DNA from: Patescibacteria group bacterium
GTDB lineage: Bacteria > Patescibacteriota > Patescibacteriia > JAGPKW01
Assembly: GCA_021734125.1 (NCBI GenBank)
Contig: JAIPJN010000001.1
Coordinates: 26,957 to 90,956, forward strand
Direction of reading: 5' to 3'
DNA length: 64,000 nucleotides
The notes under the pieces were generated by a model, which made no database searches, was not told where the DNA came from, and worked only from the letters and a program-made list of their open reading frames with translations. Below, in pieces: positions 7,480-58,382 of the stretch. Position 1 is the stretch's first letter. The number at the start of each line of letters is the position of its first letter. Position numbers and translations under genes: made by a program.

Positions 7480-7508
7480 TTGTATTTTTATTAAAAATGT
7501 TTTATAAT
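7480..7508 (+). promoter_or_regulatory. Sigma70-like promoter upstream of tRNA-Ile: TTGTAT, 17-nt spacer, TATAAT
   Basis: -35 at 7480-7485 and -10 at 7503-7508. The tRNA starts at 7526. Confidence 0.4.
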
Positions 7509-7525
7509 TTTTTATATATTTTAAA

Positions 7526-7601
7526 GGGTGTATAGCTCAGTTGGTTAGAGCGCGACTCTTATAAAGTCGAGGTCCCTGGTTCAAGTCCAGGTACACCCAC
7601 C
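7526..7601 (+). tRNA. tRNA-Ile with anticodon UAU, which decodes AUA
   Basis: Cloverleaf read by hand. Acceptor GGGTGTA/TACACCC; D-arm GCTC-AGTTGGTTA-GAGC; anticodon stem CGACT/AGTCG with loop CTTATAA, giving U33 and anticodon TAT; T-arm CCTGG-TTCAAGT-CCAGG. The body closely resembles the spacer-type tRNA-Ile(GAU). Confidence 0.7.
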
Positions 7602-7657: not shown

Positions 7658-7733
7658 GGGCCCTTAGCTCAGTTGGCTAGAGCGCCTCGTTTGCACCGAG
7701 GAGGTCGCAGGTTCAACTCCTGTAGGGTCCACC
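7658..7733 (+). tRNA. tRNA-Ala (UGC)
   Basis: GGGCCCT acceptor with the G3:U70 alanine identity pair. Anticodon stem CCTCG/CGAGG with loop TTTGCAC. T-loop TTCAACT. Confidence 0.85.
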
Positions 7734-7737
7734 GAAA

Positions 7738-7762
7738 ATCCCAGTTTACTGGGACTTTTTAT
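7738..7762 (+). terminator. Intrinsic terminator after tRNA-Ala
   Basis: Hairpin TCCCAG-TTTA-CTGGGA followed by TTTTTATTT. Confidence 0.6.
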
Positions 7763-7799
7763 TTGTATTTTTTTATTTTTTATTTTATTATGAATTTAT

Positions 7800-24194: not shown

Positions 24195-24268
24195 CGGCTA
24201 CGAGACCTGGATTCGAACCAGGATAAACAGGTCCAGAACCTGTTGTCCTACCATTAGACGATCTCGTA
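24195..24268 (-). tRNA. tRNA-Gln (CUG)
   Basis: The reverse complement folds as UACGAGA-UC-GUCU-AAUGGUA-GGAC-A-ACAGG-UUCUGGA-CCUGU-UUAU-CCUGG-UUCGAAU-CCAGG-UCUCGUA-G. It has the U1:A72 pair typical of bacterial tRNA-Gln and the anticodon CUG. Confidence 0.75.
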
Positions 24269-50650: not shown

Positions 50651-50768
50651 GTTCTGGCGATGACCTACTTTTCAACCTTGAAAAAGGCGTATCATCGGTG
50701 CTAAAAGGCTTAACTTCTGTGTTCGGTATGGGAACAGGTGTTACACTTTTGCTATTAATCACCAGAAC
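50651..50768 (-). rRNA. rrf: 5S rRNA
   Basis: The reverse complement contains CCCATACCGAACACAGAAGTTAAGC. Confidence 0.85.
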
Positions 50769-50864
50769 AATAATTTACTCTATCTTATCTAGTATAAGTA
50801 AAATAAATTAAAGAAAAGAATAAAGTTTCTAATATTCTAATTACATTTTAATTACATTATAAAT

Positions 50865-53845
<2,981 letters not shown>

Positions 53846-55416: not shown

Positions 55417-56097
55417 AATAAATTTAAGAAATATTTTAATATAAAGGAAAAACCTTCAAAAAAGGAGGAAATTTTATATAAAAAAGTTTTAAAATATACT
55501 AAACCTATATCTAGAATTCCTTGTATTAAGGGTATTTTTGTTTGTAATTCTTTATCTATGAACGCAACTAATGAAAATTCTGATATAGATTTATTTATTG
55601 TATCATCAAACAATAGGTTATGGATAGTCAGAATATTAACTACTTTATATTTTCAGTTTTTAGGAAATAGAAGAACTTCTAATAAAATAAAAAATAATTT
55701 TTGTCTTTCTTTTTTTTGTACAGAAAATGGGATTTCTGATTTTAATAAAATAAAAATAGAAAATGACATTTATCTATTTTTTTGGGTGTATTATTTAAAA
55801 ACTATAGTAGATAAAAATAATATATATAAAGATTTATTAAATTTATTTAATATAGAAAAAGAAAATCCAAATTTTGATAAATATAAATTAAATTTAAAAT
55901 ACAAAAAATCTAATAAAAAAAATAAATTTTTTGACTTTTTTGACTTTTTATTAAAGAAAATATTTATTAAAAAAACTATAAATCATAAAAAAAGATTAGA
56001 AAATCCTTGGGGTGTAATTATTAATAATGATATGTTAAAATTTCATGACAATGATATTAGAAAGAAAGTTAGAAATAAAATAATAAATGATAAATAA
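55402..56097 (+). CDS. Putative nucleotidyltransferase-fold protein
   Basis: Pol-beta-type motif [24 protein letters not shown], with G[GS] then a spacer then DID. Confidence 0.35.
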
Positions 56098-57805
56098 GGC
56101 AAAAAGAACACTTAAAGAATATTTTGGTTATGAATCCTTTCGCCCTGGGCAAGAGGATATTATTTTGAATATATTAGAAAAAAAAGAGGTTCTAGGTATT
56201 CTTCCAACTGGTGCTGGTAAATCTATTTGTTATCAAATACCTGCAATTCTTTTTGAAGGTCTTACTATAGTTATATCCCCTCTTATAGCATTAATGAAAG
56301 ACCAAGTTGATAATTTAAATAGTAAAAATATAAAATCTGCTTATTTAAATAGTAGTCTTACCCCTTCTCAATCTACTAGAATTTTACAAGATTTAAAATC
56401 TGGTATTTATAAAATATTATATGTAGCTCCAGAAAGACTTGCTATGAAAAAATTTCAAGAAGAAATGAAAAAAATTGATATATCTATGATAGCAATTGAT
56501 GAAGCACATTGTATATCAGAATGGGGTCATGATTTTAGACCTAGTTATACAAAAATAAAAGATTCTATAAATAATATTTTTGAAAATAAAAATTATCCAG
56601 CTGTTGTAGCTCTTACTGCAACAGCAACTCCTTCTGTTAAAGATGATATTATTAAACAATTAAATTTTAAAGATCCAAAAATTTTTGTTTCTGGATTTAA
56701 AAGAGAAAATTTAGAATTGGTTTGTATAAAAACAAAAAATGATGAAGAAAAAAAAGAAAGGTTATTAAAATTAATAAAAAATATAAGAGGATCAAAATTA
56801 ATTTATACTTCTACAAGAAAAGCAGCTGAAGAAATAACTTTATTTTTAAGATCAAATAATATAAAAGCTTTGTGTTATCATGGTGCTTTAGATAGTCATA
56901 CTAGAAAAGGAATGCAAGAAAAATTTATAAATGAACAATATATTACAATGGTTGCGACTTCTGCTTTTGGTATGGGTATAGATAAATCAGATATTAGATT
57001 AATAGTTCATTATACTATGTCTGGGTCTATAGAAGCTTATTATCAAGAAATAGGAAGAGCTGGAAGAGATGGTAAAAAATCTAGTTGTGTTTTATTTTAT
57101 TCTCCTAAAGATAGAAAAGTTCATGATTTTTTTGTTTTATCCGGAAATCCAGGAATAAATATTGTAAAAAAAATATATTTAAAAATTTTGGAAAAATCTA
57201 ATATATTAGATAAAGATATAGTTCCAATATCAAATTATGATATTATGTCTTCTTATATTTATATAAATGAAATGCAAATATCTTCCTCAATTAAAGTTTT
57301 AGAAGAACAAGGTTTTATAAGTAAAGATACAGAAGCAAATTCAAATATAAAAATAAAATTAAATGAAGATTTTGATGCTATACTTAAGCAACTAAGTCCA
57401 AGGGCTAGAGCTCAAAAAGATTTGCTTTTTACTTTAAAAAGAGATTTAAATTTAGAAAAGAAAGGAGATTCTCAAGAATTTAGTATTGATGAATTTTGTA
57501 TTGCTTATAATATTCAAAGAAATAATATAAATAGAGTTTTAAATATTTTAGATAAAAAAGGTTTTATAAAATATATACCCCCAATAAAAGGTAGGGTTGT
57601 AAAAATATTATATAAAGACAAAAATATTGAAATAGATACCACTCATATAAATAAAAAAAAGAAAGATTCATTATCTAAAATAAATATAATGGAAGAATAT
57701 ATTTTAACTAAAATATGCAGACATAAATTTATATTAAATTATTTTGGAGAAGAATCTCATGAAGATTATTGTGGAATTTGTGATAATTGTTTATATAAAA
57801 AATAG
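56087..57805 (+). CDS. recQ: ATP-dependent DNA helicase RecQ
   Basis: [30 protein letters not shown] box [19 protein letters not shown], and an RQC/Zn region. Confidence 0.85.
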
Positions 57806-57806
57806 A

Positions 57807-58382
57807 ATGTTTGACAAAAATATTCAAAATAAAATATCGGAAATTAGAAAATTTGGAAAAGAAAACAATATACCAAATGTTACTGAAAATGTTGGTCTTT
57901 TTTTAAATTTTATAATAAAAAATAATAAAAATATAAAAAATGTTTTAGAAATAGGTTCATGTAATGGTTTATCTTCTATTTATATGATTTCTGAATTATC
58001 TAAAAGAAATGGTAAATTAAATACTATAGAATATGTTCCCCACTCAATTTTAAGGCTTAAAAAAAATATTAATTCTTTAAACTTTGATAAGTATACAAAT
58101 ATTATTTCTTCTGATGCTATTTTATATTTAAATAAGTTAAATAAAAAAATAATAAAACCTAAATATGATTTAATATTTATTGATGCTATGAAAAAACAAT
58201 ATTTAGATTATTATCTAAATATAATAAATCTTATAAAAAAAGGTTCTGTTATTATATTTGACGATGTTATTAAATATAAATATAAAATGCAAAATTTATA
58301 TGATTATTTAGAAAAAGAAAATATAAAATATACTATAATAAATATAGATTTTGATGATGGGATTATGATTTTAAAAAAATAA
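57807..58382 (+). CDS. Class I SAM-dependent O-methyltransferase (family 3, caffeoyl-CoA OMT-like)
   Basis: VLEIGSCNGLSSIYM and DLIFIDAMKKQYLDYY. The start is moved to the ATG at 57807, just after the recQ stop. Confidence 0.6.
   Translation: MFDKNIQNKISEIRKFGKENNIPNVTENVGLFLNFIIKNNKNIKNVLEIGSCNGLSSIYMISELSKRNGKLNTIEYVPHSILRLKKNINSLNFDKYTNIISSDAILYLNKLNKKIIKPKYDLIFIDAMKKQYLDYYLNIINLIKKGSVIIFDDVIKYKYKMQNLYDYLEKENIKYTIINIDFDDGIMILKK

Follow-up and report, generated by a model that had tools for sequence, protein, structure and literature searches.

How a cell reads AUA as isoleucine and still avoids AUG is a classic problem of the genetic code, and textbooks and current papers hold that almost all bacteria solve it with lysidine, an encoded UAU anticodon being a rare exception. 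The question is raised here by a tRNA-Ile gene with anticodon UAU in a 64,000-nucleotide (nt) stretch of DNA from a Patescibacteria group bacterium (contig JAIPJN010000001.1; this whole stretch is called the window below). The answer that we favor, with a probability of roughly 0.8, is that the gene encodes a functional tRNA-Ile(UAU) that reads AUA directly as isoleucine and that it is the local copy of an old, widely conserved Patescibacteria gene, which in relatives stands beside a separate tRNA-Ile(GAU). Nothing that was found contradicts the core of this statement, a UAU tRNA that reads AUA.

The original prediction, made from the sequence, placed a tRNA with anticodon UAU and loop CTTATAA at positions 7526-7601, and ARAGORN, an Rfam/Infernal alignment, and the sequence itself all agree with it. 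The Rfam tRNA model matched positions 7526-7599 with 74.6 bits (E = 1.6e-14 for the whole window; the gathering score of the model is 29), and ARAGORN began the anticodon tat at tRNA position 35, which corresponds to window positions 7560-7562. In the Infernal alignment, C-U-U-A-U-A-A filled the seven-base anticodon loop with all posteriors maximal, so the anticodon register is unambiguous; a different register had been named as what would overturn the prediction, and the two programs returned the UAU register and none other. The loop lies in the sequence GCGCGACT CTTATAA AGTCGAGGTC. Around it, the gene has the acceptor stem GGGTGTA/TACACCC, discriminator A73 followed by CC (the final A of CCA is not encoded), the anticodon stem CGACT/AGTCG, G26, A44, the T stem CCTGG, and no intron. 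The gene is a real tRNA with a canonical fold, and the claim that a tRNA with this anticodon must read AUA is upheld. Two other identities, the lysidine-substrate tRNA-Ile2(CAU) and the spacer tRNA-Ile(GAU), were rejected, as the encoded anticodon is UAU.

The demand for such a tRNA can be gauged from codon usage. In the long open reading frames (ORFs) of the window (18,344 codons), ATA occurs at 76.6 per 1000 codons, ATT at 47.6, ATC at 2.8, and ATG at 17.7. AUA is the main isoleucine codon here, and the expectation that it would be very frequent was correct. Published values for AUA are 4.9 per 1000 codons in Escherichia coli and, at the upper end, 39 in Borrelia burgdorferi (PMC12514573), about half of the window value. 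To assign a meaning to the codon, 39 window proteins were aligned to homologs in the loci fetched for comparison, leaving out subject residues that are themselves encoded by ATA. ATA codons aligned to isoleucine in 34.7% of cases, to leucine in 18.5%, to valine in 18.1%, and to methionine in 2.3%; the profile of ATT codons was similar, with isoleucine at 33.2%, and ATG codons aligned to methionine in 23.6%. These alignments show that AUA means isoleucine, not methionine, in this organism.

The alternative that they bear on is a codon reassignment, in which AUA would stand for methionine, as it does in many mitochondria, or for some other amino acid, and the tRNA would not be charged by isoleucyl-tRNA synthetase (IleRS). 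A UAU anticodon alone does leave the amino acid unfixed, and the isotype name given by ARAGORN rests on the anticodon alone. The identity set of E. coli IleRS comprises A35, U36, A37, A38, A73, U12:A23, C4:G69, and C29:G41. In the window tRNA, A35, U36, A37, A38, A73, and U12:A23 are present, and pairs 4:69 and 29:41 are U:A and A:U. With A73, U12:A23, A37, and A38 in place, and with ATA aligning to isoleucine, leucine, and valine as ATT does and to methionine at about a tenth of the rate of ATG, reassignment was rejected and has in our judgment practically no chance of being correct.

The anticodon could also be an accident: it might stem from an error in sequencing or assembly, the gene might be a pseudogene, or a spacer-type tRNA-Ile(GAU) might recently have changed from G34 to U. 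UAU differs from GAU by a single base, and a suppressor in Bacillus subtilis arose in exactly this way (PMC3919564). This possibility was weighed against two close relatives, L207 (GCA_021735565.1) and L208 (JGI 3300001335), which were assembled independently and whose neighboring proteins are 89-90% identical to those of the window; the best homologs of the DHH-family protein encoded upstream of the window tRNA are 82-90% identical to it. Both relatives have the same gene order and the same tandem of Ile(tat) and Ala(tgc) as the window, and over 285 nt the three sequences have a mean column identity of 96%, with an invariant anticodon stem-loop. A family-level relative, L209, whose DHH-family protein is 46% identical, has an Ile(tat) gene with the same loop and a compensated D stem, 390 nt from a divergently oriented Ala(tgc). 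Because the Ile(UAU)/Ala(UGC) unit is shared with L207 and L208, and the loop with L209 as well, a sequencing error or recent G34U mutation was rejected. By the same comparison, the association of Ile(UAU) with Ala(UGC) is best read as a trait of this lineage. Other observations also argue against an accident: the locus is conserved across the phylum (see below), the gene lies outside an rRNA spacer, and its anticodon stem is common to other UAU genes and differs from that of the GAU genes of relatives. Among the matches listed in the survey described below, the genes closest to the window tRNA are the UAU genes of L012 (72 of 76 bases) and L121 (69 of 76), and both have the stem CGACT/AGTCG. 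Taken together, an artefact or recent accident is hardly credible. Recombination between a UAU gene, as the source of the 5' half, and a GAU gene, as the source of the 3' half, was likewise rejected, as the T stem is shared by UAU genes that have no Ala gene downstream, and G26 belongs to the 5' half.

The distribution of genes of this kind was surveyed by scanning one genome per species for a pattern that combined an Ile-like tRNA body with the fixed loop CTTATAA. At least 120 matching stretches were obtained, mostly from Patescibacteria, a number that is a lower bound and not a frequency. ARAGORN called a tRNA-Ile(tat) in 118 of the 120 stretches among the matches listed, which include Parcubacteria, Paceibacteria, Falkow-, Kuenen-, Komeili-, Magasanik-, Dojka-, Shapiro-, and Woesebacteria; the remainder include planctomycete tRNA arrays and scattered members of other phyla. 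In the 118 tRNA(UAU) genes, whose loop and parts of whose D, variable, and T regions were set in advance by the search pattern, 99.0% of cloverleaf cells are paired (70.2% in shuffles) and 621 cells are changed on both sides (153 in shuffles); none of 500 shuffles reached either observed value, and slid registers pair at 24-43%. This retention of all four stems by compensatory change, while the anticodon stays UAU, indicates that the surveyed genes are selected, functional tRNAs. The window tRNA fits the cloverleaf of this family.

Two side observations concern this collection. In L008, L011, L013, L071, L107, and L108, tRNA(UAU) lies in arrays of 17-35 tRNA genes and is flanked by Lys(ctt) and Lys(ttt). 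These arrays are from high-G+C genomes (planctomycetes and a Chloroflexales metagenome-assembled genome (MAG)), their context is unlike that of the Patescibacteria genes, and it probably involves mobile or duplicated tRNA arrays. In addition, record titles are partly unreliable, for example "uncultured Candidatus Saccharibacteria" and "uncultured Gammaproteobacteria" (MAGs with binchicken or SRP names): several loci titled Gammaproteobacteria carry the Patescibacteria DHH-tRNA locus, and L040, despite the title of its record, has an FtsH whose closest relatives are proteins of Wildermuthbacteria.

Conservation of the gene extends to its position. In 31 loci among the matches listed, an ortholog of the DHH-family gene precedes tRNA-Ile(tat) on the same strand, with a gap of 42-1129 nt between the two; the corresponding gap in the window is 335 nt, also on the same strand. 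A sample drawn without regard to the anticodon was obtained by searching metagenome contigs with an alignment of 12 DHH-family proteins alone, which gave 80 loci. Ile(tat) is present in 54 of them, usually as the first tRNA past the DHH gene and usually followed by Val(gac); in 16 of the 26 loci that lack it, the downstream sequence is shorter than 1 kb. No CAU tRNA was found downstream of the DHH gene in any of the 80 loci. The survey of the orthologous tRNA in relatives that had been proposed as a check therefore finds U34 at the DHH-linked position in most loci sampled. A second sample blind to the anticodon, anchored on FtsH, comprised three loci picked solely for the length of their contigs, all three with the order S1-domain protein, FtsH, Ile(tat), Val(gac), RluA-like protein, and L19. 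This second conserved neighborhood, in which ftsH is directly upstream of tRNA-Ile(UAU) and an S1-domain gene precedes ftsH, is found in L029, L040, L067, L075, L085, L100, L121, and L204-L206. By gene order, the window gene is the positional ortholog of the conserved Patescibacteria tRNA-Ile(UAU) downstream of the DHH gene. A tRNA-Ile(UAU) is normal for the phylum of this organism and not a one-off.

The claim that such a tRNA is rare in bacteria stands as a description of the literature, in which nine species without tilS were known in 2013 (PMC3575796), tRNADB-CE contained 19 species with a TAT anticodon (PMC4013482), and a preprint of 2026 still writes of "rare cases" (10.64898/2026.02.03.703510). 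It does not fit the at least 120 stretches, mostly from Patescibacteria, or the frequency of the gene in the two anticodon-blind samples (54/80 and 3/3).

Of 179 UAU-bearing loci, 18 have a gene for an RluA-family pseudouridine synthase less than 300 nt from tRNA-Ile(UAU). Its setting is of two kinds: either a short form lies between Ile(UAU)-Val(GAC) and rplS, or, in loci of the Magasanikbacteria type, a longer form adjoins the tRNA. The loci are L204 (12998-13714), L205 (12154-12783), L206 (12284-12907), L085, L086, L021, L026, L073, L114, L089, L080, L088, L051, L055, L102, and L111, among others. No RluA-family gene lies beside the tRNA in the 64-kb window. That the enzyme acts on the anticodon of the adjacent tRNA-Ile(UAU) in some lineages is a weaker lead, suggested by the pseudouridines at positions 34 and 36 of eukaryotic tRNA-Ile(UAU).

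In the window and its close relatives, tRNA-Ala(UGC) takes the place of the usual partner, tRNA-Val(GAC), and an Ile(UAU)-Ala(UGC) pair occurs in none of the 118 other genome loci among the matches listed. The original prediction had described the gene as a spacer-type tRNA-Ile. The body of the tRNA does resemble related tRNA-Ile(GAU) genes (65 of 76 bases are shared with that of L064), but the description was not borne out, as the gene lies outside an rRNA spacer and is by position an ortholog of the conserved tRNA-Ile(UAU). The Ile(UAU)/Ala(UGC) unit is 43 kb from the 23S and 5S genes, on the opposite strand, and has its own terminator and promoter-like sequence. An Rfam scan of the 64 kb found no 16S gene and no spacer tRNAs, so the rRNA operon is split, with 23S-5S standing alone, and a location of tRNA-Ile(UAU) in an rRNA spacer was rejected. 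The exchange of Val(GAC) for Ala(UGC) is a lineage-specific local rearrangement and not a sign of rRNA-spacer origin.

The same pairing bears on a further alternative, in which tRNA-Ile(GAU) has been lost from this lineage and the UAU tRNA, as the sole isoleucine tRNA, reads AUU, AUC, and AUA by expanded wobble. Ile(UAU)-Ala(UGC) mimics the usual Ile(GAU)-Ala(UGC) pair, the body of the window tRNA (G26, A44, and the T stem CCTGG) is nearer to the Ile(GAU) of relatives than are most UAU genes, and AUC is almost unused. However, AUU is still frequent, and if U34 could read U, reading of G would be expected too, which would lead to misreading of AUG. In relatives with the conserved locus, the separate Ile(GAU) stands apart from Ala(UGC), so adjacency to Ala does not imply replacement. 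G26, A44, or the CCTGG T stem is also seen in UAU genes that have no Ala after them, such as those of L012, L121, L099, and L076. On balance we consider the loss of tRNA-Ile(GAU) very improbable and retain the reading of tRNA-Ile(UAU) as a dedicated decoder of AUA beside tRNA-Ile(GAU). The presence of the latter is established in relatives: it shares the locus with Ile(UAU) in L064, L084, L130, L178, L179, and L181, and because of the separate Ile(GAU) in these six loci, UAU is an additional isoacceptor there, an outcome that the original prediction had allowed for. A different genome, Ch65, has trnI-GAU (PMC7143001).

A related question is whether the window tRNA would share the reading of AUA with the lysidine system, tilS and tRNA-Ile(CAU). 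The TilS N-terminal domain model is a GTDB bacterial marker, and tilS is accordingly very widespread. Within the 64-kb window, ARAGORN found no tRNA-Ile(CAU), no tRNA-Ile(GAU), and no CAU tRNA of any kind, and there is no PP-loop/TilS protein among the window ORFs. A phmmer search with E. coli TilS found no homolog in the window and 120 loci. It likewise found none in 1.45 Mb around UAU genes, where chance placement would be expected to yield about one hit; this lack of TilS near UAU genes is only suggestive. A search of the loci for the motif SGGxDS gave two irrelevant ORFs only, and no Ile2-type CAU tRNA was recognized near UAU genes. In UAU-bearing loci with ftsH, the gene before ftsH encodes the S1-domain protein and is not tilS, and no PF01171 gene was called within 10 kb.

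TilS does exist in the phylum, given that in Southlakia epibionticum, a member of the Patescibacteria, the gene annotated immediately before ftsH is tilS (supplement of PMC10633639). An FtsH-anchored search for further Patescibacteria TilS proteins was set aside, as both searches gave lineages with an S1-domain gene, not tilS, before ftsH. The contrast at this position between the S1-domain gene of UAU loci and the tilS of Southlakia hints at replacement; it involves few loci.

These observations allow for a genome that also has tilS and a tRNA-Ile(CAU) matured to LAU (L, lysidine), which the UAU tRNA would supplement. This would be a variant of the explanation favored here and not a contradiction of it. 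It is in keeping with the tilS of Southlakia and with the bacteria listed as carrying both a tilS homologue and a TAT gene (PMC3575796). It is at odds with the negative TilS searches of the window and of the 1.45 Mb, although this is weak evidence, with the S1-domain gene before ftsH and the want of a PF01171 gene nearby, with the failure to recognize an Ile2-type CAU tRNA near UAU genes, and with the expectation that genomes as streamlined as these would not keep two systems. We regard such redundancy as a serious possibility, if one that falls short of even odds. For the separate statement that this genome is without tilS, our estimate runs from somewhat under an even chance up to an even one. 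The broadest version, in which the lysidine system is absent here and in large Patescibacteria lineages with the UAU gene, and tRNA-Ile(UAU) is their sole decoder of AUA, is tentative, and we would sooner bet against it than on it.

With tRNA-Ile(UAU) as a direct reader of AUA, a division of labor can be proposed in which, in relatives, tRNA-Ile(GAU) would read AUU and AUC and tRNA-Ile(UAU) would read AUA. From the cases of Mycoplasma mobile and B. subtilis, U34 is probably unmodified and A37 probably carries N6-threonylcarbamoyladenosine (t6A). IleRS would have to accept a pyrimidine at position 34, which by precedent could be achieved with a basic residue at the site of E. coli W905 or with a eukaryote-type IleRS. 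Again by precedent, the ribosomal A site and competing tRNA-Met may keep misreading of AUG low. The suggestion that U34 would need a modification to avoid AUG was not borne out, in that U34 is unmodified in both bacterial cases that have been studied experimentally and AUG is discriminated against on the ribosome (PMC3575796, PMC3919564).

A search of the fetched loci with E. coli IleRS gave matches at the level of ValRS only; the class I synthetases of the window are ValRS, LeuRS, and CysRS, the 987-residue synthetase being LeuRS, and ileS is not among the genes of the 64-kb window. A few points can be set against the explanation. Where E. coli has the identity pairs C4:G69 and C29:G41, the window tRNA has U4:A69 and A29:U41, both of which vary across the family, and the mechanistic half of the proposal is drawn from precedent, as ileS, tilS, 16S, and S12 are not in the window.

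The features of the locus and of its surroundings are collected in Table 1.

Table 1. Features of the tRNA-Ile(UAU) locus and of other parts of the window (window coordinates)
Feature	Position	Strand	Basis and remarks
DHH-family protein gene, 378 residues	6055..7191	+	Pfam DHH, 28.0 bits, borderline; upstream neighbor that marks the orthologous locus
Small hydrophobic ORF, 83 residues	7181..7432	-	ORF list; between DHH gene and tRNA; no known link to tRNA
Candidate promoter, TTGTAT, 17 nt, TATAAT	7480..7508	+	Read from the sequence, putative; ends 18 nt before the tRNA 5' end
tRNA-Ile(UAU) gene	7526..7601	+	ARAGORN and Rfam tRNA model
Anticodon loop CTTATAA	7558..7564	+	Sequence and Infernal; C32, U33, U34-A35-U36 (7560-7562), A37, A38
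tRNA-Ala(UGC) gene	7658..7733	+	ARAGORN; Rfam, 67.4 bits; G3:U70; second gene of the unit, 56 nt downstream of tRNA-Ile(UAU)
Intrinsic-terminator-like hairpin TCCCAGTTTACTGGGA and T-run	7739..7764	+	Terminator scan; end of the tRNA unit
tRNA-Gln(ctg) gene	24196-24268	-	ARAGORN
23S and 5S rRNA genes	50652-53844	-	Rfam scan
RecQ-type helicase gene	56087-57805	+	Zinc-binding match at residues 522-569
O-methyltransferase gene	57744-58382	+	PF01596, 76.7 bits
LeuRS gene, 987 residues	58687-61650	-	TIGR00396, 996 bits

At the position of the terminator-like hairpin, close relatives carry TCCTAGTTTTCTAGGA, so that the stem is kept by changes on both sides. The candidate -35 element TTGTAT fits the consensus at 3 of 6 bases and for this reason is absent from the list produced by the consensus promoter scan. 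Positions 7483-7522, which include TATAAT, are invariant in L207 and L208; TTGTAT can be compared at its last three bases only. An 83-residue gene is called at the equivalent place in both relatives.

The DHH-family protein of the window is 100% identical to NCBI K9M42_00175 [Patescibacteria group bacterium], and database names for its orthologs are RecJ-like phosphoesterase or NrnA. Its Pfam score falls just below the cut-off of 28.1 bits. The DHH motif is lost in this protein, which has NIDNN; orthologs have DHH, DHL, DNQ, DRG, DQS, or SCR at this place. The enzyme may thus be inactive in many members, although its linkage to the tRNA gene is strongly conserved.

ARAGORN called three tRNA genes in the whole window: Ile(tat), Ala(tgc), and Gln(ctg). 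The G+C content of the window is 17-30%, and its genes form an ordinary chromosomal set (dnaA, polA, uvrA, ruvB, pnp, valS, leuS, cysS, genes for a type IV pilus ATPase and pyruvate:ferredoxin oxidoreductase, and others). Three of its proteins have features of their own. Residues 422-502 of LeuRS are an insert with a match to Aminoglyc_resit (PF10706, 29.8 bits against a cut-off of 21) and a weak one to the model for the lincosamide nucleotidyltransferase Lnu(D). In the RecQ-type helicase, about 190 residues without a Pfam match follow the end of the helicase C-terminal domain at residue 329. The O-methyltransferase has no specific NCBIfam match; its family, PF01596, includes TrmR, the B. subtilis methyltransferase for 5-hydroxyuridine 34 (ho5U34) in tRNA, and we do not claim that the window enzyme acts on tRNA-Ile(UAU).

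Bacterial tRNA-Ile(UAU) is already known as a kind, and the window gene is ordinary for its phylum. What appears to be unreported is the phylum-wide conservation and synteny of the UAU gene, as seen through limited samples. Among the papers searched, we found none that links lysidine, tilS, or the decoding of AUA by UAU with Patescibacteria or the candidate phyla radiation (CPR), and a paper on CPR ribosomes does not discuss decoding (PMC9297842). The wider pattern should interest specialists in decoding, and the window, with AUA as its commonest isoleucine codon, is an extreme case of it. If tilS is missing from the UAU lineages, a large share of bacterial diversity would use the solution of M. 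mobile, which would then no longer be a curiosity of a few reduced genomes, and the features of IleRS and the ribosome that safeguard it could be sought by comparing thousands of genomes. Reading without lysidine, if true, would imply phylum-wide adaptations of IleRS and of the decoding center. If tilS is present, the phylum would offer a natural system of two redundant AUA decoders. In either case, annotation pipelines and studies of tRNA sets and codon usage should expect Ile(TAT) as a normal gene in these organisms.

The systems with which the window gene can be compared share its task and differ in how they perform it. The canonical tRNA-Ile2, whose CAU anticodon becomes LAU, does the same job with TilS, which is to read AUA as isoleucine without AUG. 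It does so with a lysidine-modified C34 and needs TilS, whereas U34 is encoded in the window tRNA and no TilS step would be needed. The cytosolic tRNA-Ile(UAU) of eukaryotes (Psi-A-Psi; Psi, pseudouridine) is likewise a minor isoleucine tRNA, encoded with UAU, that reads AUA; its Psi at 34 and 36 is made on an intron-containing precursor and it is used with a eukaryote-type IleRS, whereas the window tRNA has no intron. Both tilS and tRNA-Ile(TAT) are present in Lactobacillus casei, L. plantarum, Cyanothece, and Ferrimonas, where UAU was proposed to supplement lysidine (PMC3575796). UAU and LAU decoders might thus coexist in these bacteria, which are isolated cases.

In B. subtilis, a suppressor of a tilS deletion is a G34U mutant of tRNA-Ile1 whose U34 is unmodified and whose binding on the organism's own ribosomes is strong at AUA and weak at AUG (Kohrer et al. 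2014, PMC3919564). Like the window tRNA, it combines a tRNA-Ile1-type body with UAU, and it shows that such a body with U34 is enough for life without lysidine. It is, however, a laboratory mutation in one of several gene copies, whereas the Patescibacteria gene is old and separate, with an anticodon stem and a locus of its own.

The closest parallel is M. mobile, in which tRNA-Ile2(UAU) has an unmodified U34 and t6A37 and IleRS reads UAU by means of Arg865 (E. coli W905) (PMC3575796); the M. mobile ribosome accepts AUA and rejects AUG with this tRNA (Taniguchi et al. 2013, PMC3575796). The two share an encoded UAU dedicated to AUA, a small AT-rich genome, and a position beside Ile(GAU), the last of these in relatives of the window organism. 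For M. mobile it has been demonstrated that tilS is absent, that U34 is unmodified, that IleRS relies on Arg865, and that the ribosome rejects AUG, whereas the Patescibacteria system is known from genes. A tRNA-Ile(CAU) is the presumed ancestor of the M. mobile gene, whereas the Patescibacteria genes have a body like that of tRNA-Ile(GAU). Finally, M. mobile is one species, whereas the Patescibacteria genes are conserved across a phylum-level group in a fixed neighborhood.

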